A stretch of 7,115 nucleotides of DNA from a virus (lineage: Duplodnaviria; Heunggongvirae; Uroviricota; Caudoviricetes), in the IMG/VR virus record IMGVR_UViG_2728369593_000018; one strand, written 5' to 3'. The notes beneath the pieces were generated by a model. That model searched no databases, was not told the origin of the DNA, and saw only the letters and a list, made by a program, of their open reading frames with translations. Each line of letters starts with the position of its first letter. Position 1 is the stretch's first letter. The translations under genes and the position numbers were made by a program. Shown in pieces: positions 3-7,115 of the stretch.

Positions 3-311
3 AATGAAATTAAAGAAATACCAGTAGTACGTGATGAATATGGCTGCTGGACGCATCCTGAATATGAAAAATTCTGTGACGGTCGGGAATATATTTCAAC
101 GGAAGAGTTTAACGCCTGGATGGAGGAAAATAATCTTCAATACGTCCTCTGCTTCAGAGATGAAGGATGTGCTGACCTTGATGCGTGTGATGCTGATATT
201 TCTGCATGGGAACCGGAACGACCAGAGGGCAATGGATGGTTTATTGGTTCAATACATGACACCGAAGATGGCCCGGTTTGTGTATGGCTGAGAAATAAGG
301 TCGAAGCATAA
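3..311 (+). CDS. C-terminal portion of a phage hypothetical protein (5' partial; frame is open to the window start)
   Basis: Frame 3 translates without a stop from position 3 to the TAA at 309-311 (...WTHPEYEKFCDGREYISTEEFNAWMEENN...ISAWEPERPEGNGWFIGSIHD...). The acidic, W-rich, protein-like composition favours this frame over the overlapping 31..291 ORF. Loose resemblance to small DUF551-type phage proteins is from memory only. Confidence 0.45.
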   Translation, partial: NEIKEIPVVRDEYGCWTHPEYEKFCDGREYISTEEFNAWMEENNLQYVLCFRDEGCADLDACDADISAWEPERPEGNGWFIGSIHDTEDGPVCVWLRNKVEA

Positions 312-443
312 AGGCTATAAACCGACTAACAACTAAATACTGAAGATTTAAATCAGAAACGATTTTTATTAAATCCTTAACCGGAGGGATTCCTGCACCC
401 TCAAATCATCAGGAGGCCGCCCGAAAGGGCGGTGGAGATAATA

Positions 444-644
444 ATGGGAATAACTAAAGAACGATTGTTGGAAATAGCAAACCTTAGTGATTGGGCATTA
501 AGTGATGAGAGAATTGTTTCTCCTCATGCTTATGAGTCAGTTACAAGTATAGAAATAACAACAATGGCTAGAATGCTGCTTGGTTATTTCAAAATAGAAA
601 ATAAAAACAGATGGATAGTAATGTTGATATATGTGAGATTTTAG
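444..644 (+). CDS. small hypothetical protein (66 aa)
   Basis: ATG at 444 preceded by GGAG at 435-438; the ORF overlaps the start of the downstream Q-like gene by 34 nt. AT-rich, no recognisable motif, and analogous in position to small ORFs upstream of Q in DLP12-type phages. Confidence 0.3.
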   Translation: MGITKERLLEIANLSDWALSDERIVSPHAYESVTSIEITTMARMLLGYFKIENKNRWIVMLIYVRF

Positions 645-964
645 ACGATTGGGGGGCTTGGGTTGTGGCTGGTAATAGTTCTATTGATTGGCAGGAAATA
701 GCTGATAAATATAAAAATGTTGTTCCTCATGGTAAAAAATCACGTCGTCAGTGCAGCAATGATGAAGGGCGAATTATTGACATTAGTATCCTTAGGTTAG
801 AAAGATATAAGCAACAAGAATATGAGTTAATTGTTGCTCATTTCGTGATTGGTTTATCTCTTCGTGCTATTGCAAAGCAACAAGGATGTTCAGATGGAAC
901 AATTCGTAAAAGATTGCAAAAAGCCTTAGGTTTTTTGACTGGATATATAGCAATTACCAGTTAA
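611..964 (+). CDS. Q-family late-gene antiterminator homologue (QuuD / DLP12-type small Q), 117 aa
   Basis: The translation shares the motifs I recall from E. coli QuuD (127 aa): WGAW near the N-terminus, SRRQCSNDE against SRPQCCDDD, and LIVAHFVIGLSLRAIAKQQGCSDGTIRKRLQKALG against [35 protein letters not shown]. The gene is AT-rich like the surrounding cassette. Confidence 0.6.
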   Translation: MDSNVDICEILDDWGAWVVAGNSSIDWQEIADKYKNVVPHGKKSRRQCSNDEGRIIDISILRLERYKQQEYELIVAHFVIGLSLRAIAKQQGCSDGTIRKRLQKALGFLTGYIAITS

Positions 965-1602
965 GAGTCAGCGGTTTTTTTACCAGTGTAATGGTATAAG
1001 GATACTCCCATGTGTCTTACATGATATGGAAGCGCTGTTGCTGGATGCTTTGTGATACTCTTAAAGCGGAGGGGAGAGCCTTCCGCTTCAATTTCTGCGT
1101 CCGAAACGGTCGTAGAGAAAAATTCTTTCCATTCATTGAATTTTACTGCTGATTTGTCAGACTTTATATAAATTAGAATTCCTCCATGATCGTCACGTGA
1201 CGTACCCGTGCCGTAACGTTCGGTTAGCTGAATCCAGCCATTATGAATAGATTTGGGGCCTCTCCATAATTTTGCTTCACCGATCCATTCGAATTTTCCG
1301 AATTGATGTTTAACTAATAAATCAACGTGACCGCCATGTTGAGTATCATGTTCAACATCATAAAACCTACCTTTCAGGAAATTTTTGATCGACGCTGTTA
1401 GCTCGTCCTCTCCCCACTTAGCATCTTGATAGAAGTGTTTGTCATTTTCTAAATTCTGAATAGCGTCGTCTAAATCTTCATAGAGTTGCTTTACAAAAAT
1501 ATTTTTGTCTGCAGCTAATTTTCTTTGAACCATTCCCCTAAATTCAGGATCCATTCTAATTAATGATTGAAGGTCTGCAGTACAGATGTTTACATCACTC
1601 AT
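961..1602 (-). CDS. hypothetical protein, 213 aa; candidate PD-(D/E)xK-fold nuclease
   Basis: Long ORF in AT-rich DNA. Start chosen at the internal ATG (complement of 1600-1602), which follows GGAGAG on the minus strand. Protein segment ...YDVEHDTQHGGHVDLLVKHQFGKFEWIGEAKLW... has a hydrophobic strand ending in D followed about 15 residues later by E-x-K, the classic restriction-endonuclease-fold arrangement. Its stop overlaps the stop of the convergent Q-like gene (TTAA at 961-964). Confidence 0.6.
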   Translation of the reverse strand: MSDVNICTADLQSLIRMDPEFRGMVQRKLAADKNIFVKQLYEDLDDAIQNLENDKHFYQDAKWGEDELTASIKNFLKGRFYDVEHDTQHGGHVDLLVKHQFGKFEWIGEAKLWRGPKSIHNGWIQLTERYGTGTSRDDHGGILIYIKSDKSAVKFNEWKEFFSTTVSDAEIEAEGSPLRFKSITKHPATALPYHVRHMGVSLYHYTGKKTADS

Positions 1603-1815
1603 GCAGACTCTCCAAAAGACTCGAAGGAGTAAAGTATGGATAAAGATACTGGCTAAAATTATCAACCAATTCGCCAGTTTCTGGATGGTAAAAACTTCCT
1701 AGTGTCTAAAGCATAGGAAATAAGATCATCTTCAACTGGTATTGGTTCTTCCGTTAAATTATCAATGTATTGAAAATGCATATCCAATAGATGTGCTTTA
1801 TAGCTAGATAAATAA

Positions 1816-2025
1816 TCAAGTTGCTTTTATTAGCAGGATATAGTCATCTTTCGTATCAGTTAGATAGGTTAAACCATTGATAAGGGTTTTGTATGTAAAG
1901 TGATTGATATTTTTAGCATCTTTACTAACCAGAAAAAGAAAAAGATCACGACACACACTGCGAACAGGATCATTAAAATCCTGCTCTATTTGCGTGATAA
2001 TGTCGTGATATATACTCTTTTTCAT
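1816..2025 (-). CDS. hypothetical small protein (69 aa), possibly a remnant of a decayed gene
   Basis: ORF on the same strand as the flanking cassette genes. Its ATG overlaps the TGA of an upstream 40-codon ORF in ATGA fashion, and the RBS is weak (AGG). No recognisable motif. Confidence 0.3.
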   Translation of the reverse strand: MKKSIYHDIITQIEQDFNDPVRSVCRDLFLFLVSKDAKNINHFTYKTLINGLTYLTDTKDDYILLIKAT

Positions 2026-2334
2026 TTATGGCCTGATGATCTCGCTCTTCTTTTCTCTTCACAGGACTTAACAGAATCCAATATTTTTTCAACAATAAAT
2101 ATAATCGAATCAATGTTGTTACAGTTCTTCGCTAATTGCTTCATGCAACCTAATTCTAGGATTATCAAGCATTGTCCTTTTTCCTGGTATATTAACTCTA
2201 CTGATAAAATATGTGAAGAACTTTGTGGTAAATCCCAAATTTTTCCAACTTAAACTTTGTCAATATTGGGCTTGCGGACTCTCCACTATGATGGTAAACA
2301 TCTTGACGCAAACACTTTTGACTTGGTTTGAGTT

Positions 2335-3111
2335 TTAAAGAACTTGTATTGCCATCTGAGGTGATAAAAGATACATGAGAAATTCTGCCATCACTTTTTC
2401 GTAAAGATCTTGTATTGAACCAAATAATTCAAGAGGATTGTTTAAAATAACGCCAGCTTCTTTTTTTATAAATTTAGCCACAAGGTATTGTTGAGGCTGT
2501 GATTCACTTCTTGGAAGGATAGATAAATCAATCGTAAGAATTAATATTTTTTCTGCAGGCATTAGCATGATGGTATTAAAGCATTGCGTGACTTGGCGTG
2601 TTTTGCATTTTATTTCTCCACCATTAGCACGTAATTCCATACCCACATCGCTAAGATGTGTTGGGTCAAGCTCTATCACTTCAGTGTAATACGCTTTGGA
2701 TAAAAAAACAGCAGTGTCAATTTGTTTATCACGAATGATATCTTGACATAGTTCAGCAAAATGCAGCTCAGTATCAGCAACTAACAGCTCCTCTCTGGAT
2801 AAAGGAATTGGGTATTTTTCTGAGAAGGGGCTATTGTCCTTTTTCTGATTTGTGAAAATTGTTTGTAATTTTGCTACGTCTTCATCGGTGATTCTATAAA
2901 TAGAAAGTAATCGATTCCCGCTAAAAATTAAACCTTTCCAGAAATCGTCGATTCTGTCTTTTAGGTCGGGATTATGCTGAACTACACTATTTACACGTTC
3001 AATAAAAAGGGGTAATCCTTGGGCCGTTACACCCAGTGATGAACCAAGAAGCTTACGGGTGTTGCGCCAGCCAAAGCGTGAATTGATGTTTTTTACTGTT
3101 TGCTCAAGCAT
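2335..3111 (-). CDS. hypothetical protein, 258 aa, no family recognised
   Basis: Long ORF in AT-rich DNA. ATG at complement of 3109-3111 is preceded by AAGGA with 7-nt spacing on the minus strand; the track's 3117 start is an in-frame GTG two codons upstream. Leading gene of the minus-strand cassette. Confidence 0.7.
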   Translation of the reverse strand: MLEQTVKNINSRFGWRNTRKLLGSSLGVTAQGLPLFIERVNSVVQHNPDLKDRIDDFWKGLIFSGNRLLSIYRITDEDVAKLQTIFTNQKKDNSPFSEKYPIPLSREELLVADTELHFAELCQDIIRDKQIDTAVFLSKAYYTEVIELDPTHLSDVGMELRANGGEIKCKTRQVTQCFNTIMLMPAEKILILTIDLSILPRSESQPQQYLVAKFIKKEAGVILNNPLELFGSIQDLYEKVMAEFLMYLLSPQMAIQVL

Positions 3112-3164
3112 TAACACTTCCTTAATTTTCCCTTAACAATTTAGGGTGCTAAACTTTTTTGCGC

Positions 3165-3193
3165 AGTTTACATAAAAAAATGTGCGTACGCAA
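3165..3193 (-). promoter_or_regulatory. candidate sigma70 promoter for the 258-aa gene, overlapped by a perfect 10-bp palindrome TGCGTACGCA (putative operator)
   Basis: On the minus strand: TTGCGT, 17-nt spacer, TAAACT, about 45 nt upstream of the ATG. The palindrome at 3183-3192 overlaps the -35 element and extends as an imperfect inverted repeat. Confidence 0.3.
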
Positions 3194-3252
3194 AAACTAT
3201 CTAACATGAATGAGCTTTAACCGGGAAATTTGTATATGTTGTGAGCATAAAG

Positions 3253-3282
3253 TTGGCTGAGAAATCTAAAAACGGGTAGAAT
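3253..3282 (+). promoter_or_regulatory. candidate sigma70 promoter for the hok transcript
   Basis: TTGGCT (3253-3258), 18-nt spacer, TAGAAT (3277-3282). This would give a leader of roughly 170 nt before the hok ATG, consistent with the long structured leaders of hok mRNAs. Confidence 0.3.
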
Positions 3283-3459
3283 GACTGCGGGTGCTTGAGG
3301 TCTATCTGTCTCAGGCATGAACACCAAAAGGCAGATAGAGAAAAGCCCCAGTTAACATTACGCGTCGGCAAGACGACTTAACATTAATCTGAGGCCATAT
3401 CTATGCTCTACACACGTAGGTTAGCCTCTTACGTGCCGAAAGGCAAGGAGAAGCAGGCT

Positions 3460-3615
3460 ATGAAGCAGCAAAAGGCGATGTTAATCGCCCTGATCGTCAT
3501 CTGTTTAACCGTCATAATGACGGCACTGGTAACGAGGAAAGACCTCTGCGAGGTACGAATCCGAACCGGCCAGACGGAGGTCGCTGTCTTCACAGCTTAC
3601 GAACCTGAGGAGTAA
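3460..3615 (+). CDS. hokD: Hok/Gef-family type I toxin (HokD/RelF-like), 51 aa
   Basis: Translation MKQQKAMLIALIVICLTVIMTALVTRKDLCEVRIRTGQTEVAVFTAYEPEE is essentially the K-12 HokD sequence as I recall it (one conservative difference). AGGAG lies 9 nt upstream of the ATG and a rho-independent terminator follows. Confidence 0.9.
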   Translation: MKQQKAMLIALIVICLTVIMTALVTRKDLCEVRIRTGQTEVAVFTAYEPEE

Positions 3616-3682
3616 GAGACCAGGCGGGGGAGAATCCCTCGCCACCTCTGATGTGTCAGGCATCCTCAACGCACCCGCACTT

Positions 3683-3709
3683 AACCCGCTTCGGCGGGTT
3701 TTGTTTTTT
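3683..3709 (+). terminator. rho-independent terminator downstream of hok
   Basis: Stem AACCCGC / GCGGGTT with TTCG loop, followed by TTTTGTTTTTT. Confidence 0.6.
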
Positions 3710-3781
3710 CCTGGCATTCTGGTTTACAATTCGCACGCCAGCCTGAACAACTGGCACCTGCTGTGCCAGCAGAGACAACCG

Positions 3782-4060
3782 ATGGCGCACGATACCAAAT
3801 TACACAATTCTGATGATTCTGCCGTCTTTGCCAGCAGGCACGGGCGGCGTTCCCGCACTTTCAAATCTGACTGGTTCCAGCATCCCCCATGCACTGAAGA
3901 ACAGGCCGAGTGGCTAATTCAGTGCTACCGCAGACACGGATACGAGATTAAGAAAGCCCTCAGCCTCGATTATCGTCACTGGATAATCTCCGTCAGGCTT
4001 CCTTACTCCGAACGACCACCGCGTCCGTCCCGCACATTCCAGCAACGCATCTGGAGGTAA
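3782..4060 (+). CDS. small hypothetical protein (92 aa) in the position of rem between hokD and ydfU in Qin
   Basis: ORF MAHDTKLHNSDDSAVFASRHGRRSRTF...; the upstream part of the track ORF (from 3653) overlaps the hok terminator, so the internal ATG at 3782 is preferred. Its stop overlaps the RBS and GTG start of the next gene. Assignment rests on synteny; the sequence itself is not recognised. Confidence 0.45.
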   Translation: MAHDTKLHNSDDSAVFASRHGRRSRTFKSDWFQHPPCTEEQAEWLIQCYRRHGYEIKKALSLDYRHWIISVRLPYSERPPRPSRTFQQRIWR

Positions 4061-4061
4061 C

Positions 4062-5111
4062 GTGCGGGTATTACTTCGACCTGTTCTGGTACCGGAACTC
4101 GGGCTGGTGATCGTTAAGCCGGGCCGTGAATCCATGCCGGTATTCCACAATACCCGGGTACTGGTGGAGCCGGAACCGAAAAGCATGCGTAATCTGCCGT
4201 CCGGGGTCGTTCCTGCCGTTCGCCAGCCGCTGGCGGAGGATAAATCATTACTGCCATTTTTCAGCGACGAACGAGTGATTCGTGCTGCTGGTGGCGCTGG
4301 CGCATTGTCTGACTGGTTACTGCGCCATGTTAAATCCTGCCAGTGGCCACACGGTGATTATCACCACAGTGAAACCGTCATTCACCGTTATGGTACCGGC
4401 GCAATGGTGTTGTGCTGGCACTGCGACAACCAGCTGCGCGACCAGACCTCCGAATCACTCGGGCAACTTGCTCACCAAAACCTGTCTGCATGGATGATTG
4501 ACGTCATACGCCATGCAATGAATGGCTCGCAGGAACGGGAATTATCGCTGGCTGAATTATCCTGGTGGGCGGTCCGCAATCAGGTGGCGGACGCGCTACC
4601 GGAAGCGGTATTACGTCGTTCGCTGGGGTTGCGTGCGGAAAAAATCCGCTCAATGTACCGTGAAAGCGACATCGTACCGGGAGAGCAGACCGCCACCAGC
4701 ATACTGAAACAGCGCACAAAAAATCTTGCGCCGCTGCCTCACGCCTACCAGCAACAGAACCCACCACAGGAAAAGACGGTGGTCAGCATTGCCGTTGATC
4801 CTGAGTCTCCGGAATCTTTCATGAAACGACCTAAACGTCGCCGCTGGGTTAACGAGAAATACACACGCTGGGTGAAGACACAGCCGTGTGCGTGTTGTGG
4901 TAAGCCAGCCGACGATCCCCATCACCTGATTGGTCATGGTCAGGGCGGAATGGGGACAAAATCTCACGATATTTTCACGCTACCGCTGTGTCGGGAGCAT
5001 CACAACGAGCTTCATGCGGATCCGCTGGCGTTCGAAGAAAAGCATGGTTCTCAGGTTGATTTAATTTTTCGTTTTCTTGATCACGCCTTTGCAACTGGCG
5101 TGCTTGGGTAA
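4062..5111 (+). CDS. ydfU: DUF968-type phage protein with C-terminal HNH-like Cys/His motif (YdfU-like, NinG position)
   Basis: 349-aa ORF; GTG start at 4062 with GGAGG 4 nt upstream. C-terminal CACCGKPADDPHHLIGHGQGGMGTKSHDIFTLPLCREHHNELH resembles the Cys/His nuclease motif of NinG/DUF968 proteins. Lies between the Rem-position ORF and rusA, as in lambdoid nin regions. Confidence 0.75.
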   Translation: MRVLLRPVLVPELGLVIVKPGRESMPVFHNTRVLVEPEPKSMRNLPSGVVPAVRQPLAEDKSLLPFFSDERVIRAAGGAGALSDWLLRHVKSCQWPHGDYHHSETVIHRYGTGAMVLCWHCDNQLRDQTSESLGQLAHQNLSAWMIDVIRHAMNGSQERELSLAELSWWAVRNQVADALPEAVLRRSLGLRAEKIRSMYRESDIVPGEQTATSILKQRTKNLAPLPHAYQQQNPPQEKTVVSIAVDPESPESFMKRPKRRRWVNEKYTRWVKTQPCACCGKPADDPHHLIGHGQGGMGTKSHDIFTLPLCREHHNELHADPLAFEEKHGSQVDLIFRFLDHAFATGVLG

Positions 5112-5123
5112 AAGAGGTGACTG

Positions 5124-5483
5124 ATGCTCATAGATTTGGTTTTACCTTACCCGCCGACGGTGAACACTTACTGGCGACGCCGTGGCAGCACATATTTTGT
5201 ATCAAAAGTCGGTGAGCGTTATCGCCGTGATGTGGCGCTTATTGTTCGCCAGCAGCAACTGAAATTAAACCTGTCCGGAAGGCCGGCAATAGAAATTATT
5301 GCAGAGCCACCGGATAAGCGCCGTCGTGACCTGGACAATATCCTGAAGGCACCACTGGATGTACTGACGCATGCGGGGCTGCTCATAGACGACGAGCAGT
5401 TTGATGAAATTAATATTGTGCGCGGTCAGCTTGTTCCTGGTGGGCGGTTGGGGATAAAAATCACAGAACTGGAGTATGCATGA
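5124..5483 (+). CDS. rusA: RusA-family Holliday junction resolvase
   Basis: 119-aa ORF with AGAGG RBS; LPYPPTVNTYWRRRG and PDKRRRDLDNILKAPLDVL match the RusA signature as recalled (PDRRRRDLDNLQKA in E. coli RusA). Its stop overlaps the next ATG (ATGA). Confidence 0.9.
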   Translation: MLIDLVLPYPPTVNTYWRRRGSTYFVSKVGERYRRDVALIVRQQQLKLNLSGRPAIEIIAEPPDKRRRDLDNILKAPLDVLTHAGLLIDDEQFDEINIVRGQLVPGGRLGIKITELEYA

Positions 5484-6169
5484 ATAACCAGTATTTACAG
5501 TTTGTTCGTGAGCAACTCATGATTGCCACCGCCGATTTGAGTGGATCAACAAAAGGGCAGCTTGAGGCCTGGCAGGAGAATGCCATGTTTGATACAGGGC
5601 GTTACAGGCGTAAAAAAATCCGGTACCGCGATGAAGTGACTGGAAAAATGATAACGCGGGATAATCCACCAATCCCGGGAAAGCAATCGCTGGCGAAGGG
5701 GGCGTCAATTCCTCTCGTCAGTCCGGTTGAGTTTTTGACATCATCGTGGCGGCGGGCTGTTCTGTCTCTTGAAGAACATCATAAAGCCTGGTTGTTGTGG
5801 TGTTACAGCGGGAGTATTTGTTGGGAATATCAGATCGCGATAACACAGTGGGCGTGGAATGAATTTAATACTCAATCCGGTACCAGAAAAATTGCTGGGA
5901 AAACGCAGGAACGCCTGAAAAAATTAATCTGGCTGGCGGCGCAGGCAGTAAAAGCAGAACTTTTTGGTGGGGAAGGTTATGAATATCAGGAGCTGGCATT
6001 ACTGGCGGGAGTGACAACTAAAAACTGGTCCAAAACATTTACTCGTCACTGGGTTGCAATGAAACACATTTTTCACCGACTGGATAGTGAGGCTTTATTA
6101 TTTGTAATGAGAACACGTTCAAAACAAAAGGCGGCATTTTCAAAGCAAAGTGTTGCAAAAGTAGATTGA
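5480..6169 (+). CDS. putative late-gene antiterminator Q (large, phage-82 / QuuQ-like type), 229 aa
   Basis: Position immediately after rusA and immediately before a promoter, short leader, terminator and tRNA cluster, as for Q in Stx phages and in Qin (ydfU then quuQ). GGAG lies 5 nt upstream of the ATG. The call rests on synteny and size; the sequence is not recognised from memory. Confidence 0.5.
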   Translation: MNNQYLQFVREQLMIATADLSGSTKGQLEAWQENAMFDTGRYRRKKIRYRDEVTGKMITRDNPPIPGKQSLAKGASIPLVSPVEFLTSSWRRAVLSLEEHHKAWLLWCYSGSICWEYQIAITQWAWNEFNTQSGTRKIAGKTQERLKKLIWLAAQAVKAELFGGEGYEYQELALLAGVTTKNWSKTFTRHWVAMKHIFHRLDSEALLFVMRTRSKQKAAFSKQSVAKVD

Positions 6170-6181
6170 AAGGCATATATT
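6153..6181 (+). promoter_or_regulatory. pR'-like late promoter
   Basis: TTGCAA (6153-6158), 17-nt spacer, TATATT (6176-6181), overlapping the 3' end of the Q-position gene and about 55 nt upstream of a strong intrinsic terminator, like the lambdoid pR'/tR' arrangement. Confidence 0.4.
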
Positions 6182-6234
6182 TCATGCAAATCTGATATTT
6201 TGCCGATTTTGTACGTGATGGCAAAATCAAACAA

Positions 6235-6260
6235 AACCCGCCCACAAGCGGGTTTTTTTG
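6235..6260 (+). terminator. tR'-like rho-independent terminator
   Basis: Stem AACCCGC / GCGGGTT with CCACAA loop followed by seven T residues. Confidence 0.6.
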
Positions 6261-6326
6261 TGCCACTTATCTCGGATAGACATGGTGAATGCGCTGGTGG
6301 AGGAGATAAGGGTGATTTTTGTATGC

Positions 6327-6356
6327 TTGCAACATTGATTTTCGTAACGTTATTAT
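6327..6356 (+). promoter_or_regulatory. candidate promoter for the tRNA cluster
   Basis: TTGCAA (6327-6332), 18-nt spacer, TATTAT (6351-6356), about 10 nt upstream of the first tRNA. Confidence 0.3.
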
Positions 6357-6366
6357 CCTGCGCCCG

Positions 6367-6441
6367 GCCCTTTAGCTCAGTGGTGAGAGCGAGCGACTCA
6401 TAATCGCCAGGTCGCTGGTTCAAATCCAGCAAGGGCCACCA
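6367..6441 (+). tRNA. ileZ: tRNA-Ile2-like (anticodon CAU; ileZ/ileX-type), with a 6-nt T-loop
   Basis: Perfect acceptor stem GGCCCTT / AAGGGCC, D-arm GCTC-AGTGGTGA-GAGC, anticodon loop CTCATAA, encoded CCA. Closely resembles E. coli ileX as recalled, except the T-loop reads TCAAAT (6 nt) where ileX has TTCAAGT. Confidence 0.8.
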
Positions 6442-6442
6442 A

Positions 6443-6518
6443 CCGCCACTAGCCATCAGGAAAGAGCGTCAACCCTTTAAGTTGAGTGTGCGAGGTTCGA
6501 GTCCCCGGTGGTGGTCCA
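6443..6518 (+). tRNA. tRNA-like sequence in the argN position; degenerate D-stem and unusual anticodon loop CCTTTAA (possible pseudo-tRNA)
   Basis: Acceptor stem CCGCCAC / GTGGTGG (one G-U), T-arm CGAGG-TTCGAGT-CCCCG (one mismatch), anticodon stem TCAAC / GTTGA, encoded CCA. The D-stem pairs only 2 of 4 positions and position 33 is C rather than the near-universal U; anticodon would read UUU. Confidence 0.45.
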
Positions 6519-6533
6519 TTATCGGTATTTCTG

Positions 6534-6607
6534 CGTTGTTAGCTCAGCAGGACAGAGCAATTGCCTTCTAAGCAATCGGTCACTGGTTCGACTCCAGTAC
6601 AACGCGC
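6534..6607 (+). tRNA. argO: tRNA-Arg (anticodon UCU; argO/argU-type)
   Basis: Perfect acceptor stem GCGTTGT / ACAACGC, D-arm GCTC-AGCAGGACA-GAGC, anticodon loop CTTCTAA, T-arm ACTGG-TTCGACT-CCAGT. The 3' CCA is not encoded. Confidence 0.85.
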
Positions 6608-6648: not shown

Positions 6649-6736
6649 AAATGTCTCACAATTCAGACGGTTGACAGTTGTCTGTTTTGCGGGGAGTTTG
6701 TTAAAAGAAACTGGCATGGTGAATCCCCCTGTGCGG

Positions 6737-6755
6737 CTGTCTCTTATACACAAAT
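6737..6755 (+). repeat. IS50-like terminal inverted repeat (left end)
   Basis: CTGTCTCTTATACACAAAT compared with the 19-bp Tn5 end sequences; immediately followed by a 9-bp stem hairpin CAAATCCCC-ACCC-GGGGATTTG. Confidence 0.7.
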
Positions 6756-6901
6756 CCCCACCCGGGGATTTGTGATGTCTGTCAGTCTGCTTTAGGGGGA
6801 CTCTTTCCATCCGGTAGTTTCCTTCCTCCCCGGCAGCGATTTTTTGAACTTTTTCCTCACCCGTTGATCTTCTCTTATATTTCATTTTCTTCGGGTCTGT
6901 T

Positions 6902-7115
6902 ATGGTACTTTCTGATTGTTATTCATGGGCTAACGAGCAGTTTGGACATGCCCGTCTCGGTGATCCGCGTCGTACACGACGCCTTGTGTCACTGGCCTCT
7001 TCTCTCGCTCAGCATGCAGGTCTTTCTATTGTGAAATCATCCCAGTCCCTGCTCAGGTTGAAGGTGCGTACCGCCTGATACGTAACCCGTCTGTGTCCCC
7101 GCAAGCCATTGCCGA
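6902..7115 (+). pseudogene. IS50-like transposase N-terminal region with an apparent single-base frameshift (3' partial)
   Basis: Frame A gives MVLSDCYSWANEQFGHARLGDPRRTRRLVSLASSLAQHAGLSIVKSSQS, matching Tn5 Tnp ...DWAKSVFSSAALGDPRRTARLVNVAAQLAKYSGKSITISS..., then hits TGA at 7076-7078. The homology continues in another frame as PAQVEGAYRLIRNPSVSPQAIA, matching Tn5 ...EAMQEGAYRFIRNPNVSAEAI. The shift maps to the C-run near 7046-7050. Confidence 0.6.

Follow-up and report, generated by a model that had tools for sequence, protein, structure and literature searches.

We analysed a stretch of 7,115 nucleotides (nt) from the IMG/VR virus record IMGVR_UViG_2728369593_000018 (Caudoviricetes), here called the window, which is a segment of a lambdoid prophage. 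The nearest complete genome is that of enteropathogenic Escherichia coli (EPEC) E2348/69, with 99.5% identity over positions 300–3400. Our subject is a gene of the Q antiterminator family at 444–964 on the plus strand, here called Q-ext, together with the genes that converge on it and a short conserved sequence that lies beyond them. In the window, Q-ext meets a three-gene cassette tail to tail. The cassette is followed by a 13-mer motif at 3183–3195, by hok/sok and by a second Q gene at 5480–6169.

Q-ext encodes an N-terminally extended protein of the Q21/QuuD family. In E2348/69, the counterpart of window positions 444–964 encodes 173 amino acids (aa) and is annotated as 'antiterminator Q family protein' (WP_000513135.1); in this strain and 67 other complete E. 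coli genomes, the gene length is 170–175 aa. The window copy is frameshifted, as one A is missing near 602 and the gene is thus split into the open reading frames (ORFs) 432–644 and 611–964. A preliminary description, made from the sequence alone, had taken the 117-aa ATG ORF at 611–964 (+) for the whole gene. This ORF is present in the window; however, it is the C-terminal two-thirds of the 173-aa gene and comprises the Q domain. The remaining N-terminal extension of about 60 aa (444–623) is specific to the long-form clade that we describe below. An internal start at M57, which would yield the 117-aa protein, was rejected because this methionine is not conserved in other long forms.

The missing A is one of 15 window-specific 1-nt insertions or deletions (indels) relative to E2348/69, compared to five substitutions. 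Thirteen of the 15 fall within 600–3376, which is the AT-rich region of Q-ext, the cassette and hok, and not all of them are in homopolymers; none lies within 3377–6338. Besides Q-ext, they break two of the three cassette genes. The full set is shared by no related locus that we examined. As the indels are unique to the window and outnumber the substitutions 15 to 5, they look like sequence errors, which is the probable explanation. They could stem from error-prone assembly of AT-rich or modified DNA, or they could be real decay. A programmed frameshift at 602 was rejected, since intact relatives read straight through this position and the window contains 14 other unique indels.

The preliminary description had recognised a QuuD-type Q homologue in the ORF, and this identification holds; Q-ext is a paralogue within the small, QuuD-like branch of the Q21/Q933W antiterminators. 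Q-ext matches PF06530 (Phage_antitermQ) over residues 62–171 with 111.5 bits (cut-off 26, E=3e-32, model positions 3–112 of 118) and the 'Q-like' family phrog_79 with E=1.7e-34. The Q domain keeps all 15 columns that are invariant in an alignment of 44 long and short Q sequences, including W70, G71, W73, D107, G109, H133, F134, R155 and K156. Sequence evidence also points to a helix-turn-helix (HTH) that resembles sigma-70 region 4: PF08281 is matched with 25.9 bits against a cut-off of 25.7, and TIGR02937 with E=3e-8, yet with 33.5 bits, which is under its cut-off of 42.9 bits. The HTH segment SLRxIAKxxxCSDGTIRK is common to Q-ext and the short Q proteins.

In a search of 5.8 billion proteins, we observed two sharply separated length classes. 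The long form (170–185 aa, at least 64% identity, full coverage) occurs in E. coli and Salmonella, and the short form (113–120 aa, about 60% identity over the Q domain alone) occurs in many enterobacterial genera. The long form, to which the name Q-ext refers, is a separate clade of E. coli and Salmonella. Of 5,426 complete E. coli genomes, 68 have it; it did not turn up in any of 50,697 phage records. The extension itself matches only phrog_3323, a family of unknown function. A HMMER scan of 1.84 billion representatives with the extension retrieved five proteins. Four of them have 77% identity or more over the query stretch, and the fifth, of 193 aa, has 59%.

The ratio of nonsynonymous to synonymous divergence (dN/dS) between pairs of six long-form genes is 0.2–0.4, both in the extension (about 0.3) and in the Q domain. 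This indicates that Q-ext is under purifying selection, the novel extension included. The extension shows several-fold less synonymous divergence than the Q domain (for instance 0.12 versus 1.25 for the loci L001 and L031; comparison of L001–L005 and L031), and the 3' third of the gene co-varies with cargo type. There are thus recombination breakpoints inside the gene, with the Q domain travelling together with the cargo.

The genes that converge on Q-ext occupy the minus strand of the window, such that 961–3111 is entirely minus-strand coding. Gene 1 (2022–3111, phrog_12777) encodes 363 aa in E2348/69 and is broken in the window by indels at 2133, 2188, 2244 and 2392. Gene 2 (1595–2025, phrog_11490) encodes 142 aa in E2348/69 and is broken by indels at 1701 and 1818. 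Gene 3 (961–1602) encodes a protein of 213 aa with a BamHI/OkrAI-like PD-(D/E)xK nuclease fold, and its stop overlaps that of Q-ext. As stated in the preliminary description, the two stop codons overlap without a terminator: the convergent ORF 961–1665 (-) ends at 961, both stop codons use the TTAA at 961–964, and no terminator-like site was predicted near 964 on either strand. The 4-nt overlap is annotated likewise in E2348/69. In all loci examined, the 3' ends of Q and cargo range from a 4-nt overlap to a 30-nt gap, again with no terminator, and cargo transcription would thus run antisense into the Q gene. Transcriptional interference arising from the convergence is plausible, and the arrangement is family-wide.

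The three cassette genes have a remote, collinear homologue (23–35% identity) beside the short Q of an Stx1a phage. Copies with no Q at all, collinear too, occur in a Yersinia prophage and, next to a resolvase, in Shewanella. The cassette is thus autonomous, and Q-ext is tied to the cargo slot rather than to this particular cassette. With PADLOC, only the nuclease gave a match, a marginal one to PDC-S54 (E=0.0014); the other two proteins gave none, and no described system was recognised. Pfam and NCBIfam returned nothing for the cassette proteins, and a sequence search of PDB returned nothing for the 197-aa and 363-aa cassette proteins. A defence role of the cassette is nevertheless likely in view of the nuclease fold, the mobile contexts and the known defence genes in sister slots.

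These sister slots lie behind short Q genes (8357–9745 of L041, 8359–9918 of L051, 986–2011 of L039, 7363–10197 of L035 and 3639–5734 of L054) and hold known or candidate defence genes. Their content includes PD-Lambda-5_A (E=4.5e-75), PDC-M53A, an OLD/Gabija/PARIS-like ATPase with a DNA methylase, and a RelA/SpoT-like protein with an NA37 protein. The same cargo families are found in short-Q and in long-form slots. The slot behaves as a hotspot for defence or accessory genes. The commonest cargo pattern, seen in the Q-ext locus L002 (8607–10016) and in many short-Q loci, is a protein of 160–190 aa with one of 270–350 aa. In L002, the large protein is DUF6731, and the small one (159 aa) has no more than a weak match to RexB (E=0.0015); the two may represent a RexAB-like pair.

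Every long-form locus that we examined has the same gene order: replication genes ending in DUF977, Q-ext, the convergent cargo, hok/sok, nin-type genes (DUF968/RusA or DUF1367/YbcO), a second Q and the lysis genes. The second Q belongs to PF06323, to DUF1133 or to another 'antitermination protein', thus to at least three kinds. This order is kept in the 68 complete E. coli genomes and in Salmonella, across five types of cargo locus with four cargo families. The cargo is either the three-gene cassette of the window, a DUF6731 protein with a RexB-like membrane protein, or of the NA37 types, in which two versions of an NA37 nucleoid-associated-like protein occur with a protein of about 400–490 aa. 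As the same order is found with different cargo types and different second Q genes, there is no support for reading the arrangement of Q-ext as an accidental junction. Tritos and vB_EcoS-640R1, which are functional phages with the same backbone, have no Q-ext and carry other genes between DUF977 and hok. Q-ext and its cargo thus form an optional occupant of a slot in the early region.

Beyond the cargo lies the 13-mer TGCGTACGCAAAA (3183–3195, +), a putative Q-binding element with the palindromic core GCGTACGC that is conserved across Q-ext and short-Q loci. In an alignment across cargo types, it is the lone island of identity between cargo and hok in otherwise unalignable DNA. The exact 12-mer GCGTACGCAAAA (3184–3195) occurs once in the window, and once in every long-form locus that extends far enough, Salmonella included, always on the Q strand and beyond the cargo. 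We found it again at the short Q genes, of which we compared 34 loci from over 20 genera. The exact 12-mer is present in 30 of these; three have it in the same place with one or two mismatches, and in one the contig ends too early. It lies 0.6–2.7 kb downstream of the short Q, and up to 2.9 kb in a separately found Enterobacter locus. Minus-strand ORFs fill the interval between Q and motif in 33 of 33 short-Q loci and likewise in each of the five Q-ext types. As the site of the short Q always lies beyond convergent cargo, a tail-to-tail cargo is normal for the subfamily. Thus, none of these 33 loci has the small Q directly before a late promoter with the cargo absent. The earlier observation that no promoter or leader follows the small Q is correct for the DNA immediately downstream, but it misses the family-specific site at 3183–3195 on the far side of the cassette.

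In an unbiased scan of viral contigs, at least 116 loci contained TGCGTACGCAAAAA, mostly as chance matches on contigs that are unrelated, and among the matches listed 23 of 116 had a Q gene. All 23 of these listed Q-bearing loci showed the expected order and orientation. Since most matches are due to chance, the scan demonstrates consistency rather than specificity. In Tritos and vB_EcoS-640R1, the motif is absent even when two mismatches are allowed. From its position, its conservation and a covariation in DLP12 that is described below, we infer that the motif is the Q-binding site.

At the short Q genes, the 12-mer is part of a longer conserved block, CTAAC-GCGTACGCAAAA-nn-TATcgT-n4-TGtTAAGAGTGGT...CTTAA...terminator. 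From its sequence, this block can be read as a Q-binding element, a -10, a sigma-dependent pause element, a leader and the terminator tR'. The layout agrees with that described for Q proteins (bioRxiv 10.1101/651190; PMC6266700); the site is not described in two articles on Stx late promoters with other Q types (PMC6266700, PMC7547250). Across the 33 short-Q loci, there is hardly any variation in the pause element TGnTAAGAGTGG and the -10. In every one of the five Q-ext types, the consensus TATcgT-n4-TGtTAAGAGTGGT is either missing or mutated, and the -10-like hexamer no longer has its key A. We compared the loci with a profile hidden Markov model of the 33 short-Q promoter units. In Q-ext loci, the model aligns across the motif only, extending in the E2348 type to the damaged -10 region, and never covers the pause element; in DLP12, the alignment runs through the pause element.

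In Q-ext loci, the motif is followed by 55–180 nt of type-specific sequence and then by the hok promoter, sok and hok. In the window, hok/sok (3253–3707, +; RF01794, 108.9 bits) thus stands in place of the pause element, leader and tR' of the short-Q unit. The next terminator after the motif is about 490 nt away, at 3683–3700, and is followed by early nin-type genes and the second Q. A cognate promoter and pause site, as envisaged in the preliminary description, could therefore be located only in part: there is a candidate site at 3183–3195, and the short-Q -10 and pause element are absent. The Q-ext module clearly descends from a late-control unit.

The motif also bears on transcription in the other direction. 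On the minus strand it reads TTTTGCGTACGC, and we predict a leftward promoter of the cassette at 3165–3193 (-) with the -35 TTGCGT (complement of 3188–3193, inside the 13-mer), a 17-nt spacer and the -10 TAAACT (complement of 3165–3170). The spacer is 18 nt in E2348/69. The pattern TTGCGT-N17-TAnnnT is present in about 25 of the 33 short-Q loci and in three of the five Q-ext cargo types (that of the window, DUF6731 and S42). It is thus plausible that the cargo is transcribed from a leftward promoter with its -35 within the candidate Q site.

A well-known relative for comparison is QuuD (YbcQ) of the prophage DLP12 in E. coli K-12, which belongs to the same Pfam family as Q-ext and is 36% identical to it. 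As in the window, quuD is followed by a convergent gene, nmpC, and only then by a palindromic site. In DLP12, the site ACGTACGTAAAA is followed by the leader TGTTAAGAGTGGTTAC, which is shared with the short-Q loci, the pause element, a terminator and then the lysis genes (essD), whereas the Q-ext locus has no such signals. Unlike Q-ext, QuuD has 127 aa with no N-terminal extension, is encoded downstream of rusA, where Q is canonically located, and is the sole Q of its prophage. Its helix has YIGK where other Q proteins have TIRK, and the DLP12 site differs as well, which is one instance of covariation between protein and site. According to PMC7918800, which cites Rueggeberg 2013, QuuD controls the lysis operon that lies past nmpC in DLP12.

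The short Q proteins (113–120 aa; from mEp460, Stx1_499 (an Stx1a phage), SfII and many enterobacterial prophages) are about 60% identical to Q-ext in the Q domain. Their loci share with the Q-ext loci the identical 12-mer, the convergent cargo in between and the cargo families, including the remote homologue of the three-gene cassette. They differ in that the short Q has no extension and is found where Q canonically lies, before the lysis genes, and in that its site is followed by -10, pause element, leader and terminator. The gene content of the short-Q loci L006 and L035 showed no second Q; in mEp460, a second gene annotated as Q adjoins.

A more distant relative is Q21 (6JNX, 6P18), the structural prototype of PF06530, which matches Q-ext over the N-terminal half with E=6e-4; both have a helix-turn-helix like that of sigma region 4. 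Yin et al. 2019 (bioRxiv 10.1101/651190) describe how Q21 binds a DNA element beside a sigma-dependent pause element and how it builds a nozzle on the RNA exit channel. Q21 has 162 aa and recognises two direct 8-bp repeats, whereas the candidate site of Q-ext has a palindromic core and no adjacent pause element.

We thus favour the explanation that Q-ext is a DNA-binding regulator of the cargo slot that acts at 3183–3195, and neither a relic of a junction nor a late switch; we give it a probability of roughly 45%. What speaks for it is that the pair of protein and site has been kept while the signals for loading onto RNA polymerase have been lost, and that the site overlaps the cargo promoter. 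We propose that a late-control unit, consisting of Q, cargo slot and Q site, was relocated to a Qin/Rac-type prophage, into the early-region slot that separates the replication genes from hok/sok, and that this prophage has a late Q of its own (in the window, the Q82-family gene at 5480–6169). The relocated Q would have gained the orphan extension of about 60 aa, which presumably has a role, and the core of the binding site would have been kept exactly. The -10, pause element, leader and terminator would have been lost, with hok/sok in their place, and Q-ext would no longer load onto RNA polymerase as a late antiterminator. Instead, it would act as a sequence-specific regulator at the motif, which contains the predicted -35 TTGCGT of the promoter of the three-gene nuclease cassette. 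Q-ext is probably produced from the early rightward operon after induction. We infer that it binds the motif and most likely shuts off the transcription of the cassette, which would otherwise run head-on, and past no terminator, into the Q-ext gene.

A regulatory function had already been considered in the preliminary description, which proposed that the small Q was co-opted as a regulator of the cassette. Regulation is also what we favour, but it would be tied to the slot rather than to this cassette, and the link would be a site that overlaps the cassette promoter rather than co-transcription.

Several observations weigh against the proposed slot regulator. The Q-ext loci of the NA37 type (L004 and L031) have a poor -10 at the N17 distance (TGTCGT/TCTCGT), and the geometry in which the motif serves as the cargo -35 is thus not universal. 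The motif could also be conserved only as the -35 of the cargo promoter. Furthermore, a -10-like hexamer lies 2–13 nt rightward of the motif in each Q-ext type, and the strong terminator at 3683–3700 follows hok, so that rightward Q-dependent transcription is possible. An AlphaFold2 model of Q-ext based on the 44-sequence alignment has a predicted local distance difference test (pLDDT) score of 51 and is too poor to judge the parts that would contact RNA polymerase or form a nozzle. If the window sequence is accurate, Q-ext and two cassette genes are frameshifted there. Lastly, since none of the phage isolates has Q-ext, its host prophages may be defective.

The proposal can be extended to the whole QuuD-like subfamily, which might run a bidirectional switch. 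A single short palindromic site would serve two promoters: for the late promoter it would be where Q is loaded, and for the convergent promoter of the defence cargo it would be the -35 or the operator. In one and the same step, Q would then turn the late genes on, and the defence genes as well as the antisense transcription into Q off. Q-ext would be a Q that has lost antitermination and whose one remaining task is to switch off a defence hotspot located in the early region, and as such the first Q-family protein that works as a plain repressor. We consider this wider model tentative, possible rather than probable.

The possibility of rightward transcription leads to an alternative that we regard as rather doubtful, namely a two-step cascade in which Q-ext is still an antiterminator at 3183–3195. 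Polymerase from an adjacent rightward promoter would read through hok/sok and the terminator at 3683–3700 into DUF968, RusA and the second Q, which in turn would activate the lysis and morphogenesis genes. The orientation of the motif is the same as in true late promoters, and it is placed where rightward transcription has to restart past the 2.2-kb head-on cassette. In addition, a strong terminator divides hok from the nin-type genes and the second Q, purifying selection acts on the whole Q fold and not on the HTH alone, and the E2348-type sequence retains vestiges of the -10 region. However, the pause element TGnTAAGAGTGG and the -10, which hardly vary in the 33 short-Q loci, are missing or mutated in each of the five Q-ext types, and there is no conserved -35 or -10 rightward of the motif. 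Moreover, in functional phages that share the backbone, transcription passes the same hok terminator on its way to their Q, and does so with no Q-ext.

Alternatively, gene and motif could be decaying, functionless remnants of a recombination between two prophage late regions, which is how the preliminary description would have it if the locus were a mosaic junction. The module does clearly descend from a late-control unit and has lost pause element and tR', no phage isolate has Q-ext, the ORF of the window is frameshifted, and three IMG/VR copies are split too. We nevertheless consider decay improbable. The ORFs are intact in the 68 complete E. coli genomes and in Salmonella, with 64–100% protein identity and dN/dS of 0.2–0.4, and the 13-mer is invariant while its flanks on both sides are unalignable between cargo types. 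The order is constant with several cargo types (five types of cargo locus) and several second Q genes (at least three kinds), and the indels, unique to the window and 15 to 5 relative to substitutions, are typical of sequence errors.

Finally, Q-ext could itself be defence cargo, a decoy that binds the element of incoming or co-resident short-Q phages, fails to load onto polymerase owing to its extension and so blocks their late expression; despite the close similarity of its HTH to that of the short Q proteins, the identical site, the lineage-specific extension and the defence genes that the slot otherwise holds, we give this little credence, as Q-ext ends the early rightward operon and no recognisable promoter of its own was found, so that it is probably silent in the lysogen, and as a decoy would have no reason to keep a copy of the site in cis.

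Q proteins stand in textbooks as antiterminators, and it is supposed that they lie next to their promoter. Here, a whole branch of the Q family, QuuD of K-12 included, keeps a slot for defence or accessory genes between the gene and its site. The region after Q is known to take up accessory genes such as the stx genes and the toxin cassettes of APSE; the annotation of APSE among the phage records also shows cargo after Q. With PD-Lambda-5, OLD-like and other systems among its occupants, the slot is one in which a search for new defence genes can be expected to pay off. In addition, a conserved candidate binding site of 12–13 bp is now defined for the QuuD-like branch.

In lambda, transcription from paQ antisense to Q acts as a brake on the late genes. 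The Q-ext locus differs from this in that the antisense transcription would come from a whole convergent cassette whose promoter shares the Q site, and in that Q-ext would not be the late regulator. That a Q paralogue and its site were kept while what is needed for polymerase loading was lost suggests that a Q was repurposed as a regulator of prophage cargo. If this is true, the repurposed Q would link the lysis-lysogeny programme to the control of prophage-encoded immunity.

The following observations concern the surroundings of the module. Upstream of Q-ext lies a leader of about 75 nt (384–437, +) with two hairpins (384–402, and 416–433 with a GNRA-type GAAA loop) that directly adjoin the Shine-Dalgarno sequence GGAG at 434–437. 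The leader is conserved across Q-ext loci despite differing upstream genes. An Rfam scan of the window found sok and tRNAs only and nothing for this leader. A role as nut- or put-like antitermination RNA was considered; we saw no boxA, no Rfam match and no clean covariation.

Downstream, the terminator of hok (3679–3707, CTTAACCCGCTTCGGCGGGTTTT) resembles the tR' of the short-Q and QuuD leaders of E. coli (CTTAAACCCGCC..GCGGGTTTTT). This likeness may be a coincidence, or it may be a trace of hok/sok having been inserted into a leader.

The preliminary description had noted two different Q types in the window, and this is borne out. The second Q (5480–6169, +) belongs to the Q82 family (PF06323, 305 bits, E=3.5e-91), which is unrelated to the PF06530 family. 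Its reported downstream signals were also recovered, with a promoter-like site at 6153–6181 and a terminator at 6233–6262, so that the unit spans 5480–6262. In E2348/69, holin and lysozyme genes lie downstream of it. The second Q is the actual late regulator of the prophage.

Towards the end of the window, ARAGORN calls a third tRNA ('Lys', anticodon ttt) at 6443–6518, between the tRNAs at 6366–6441 (cat) and 6533–6607 (tct). The third call has no tRNA match in Rfam, RefSeq annotates two tRNAs in E2348/69, and the call may thus represent a degenerate tRNA. An ISEc13-like insertion sequence (IS) of the IS4 family at 6736–7115 adjoins the prophage at the junction that is also found in E2348/69 (at about 6745), in the opposite orientation, and this end of the window matches positions 16985–16605 of L001 in reverse.

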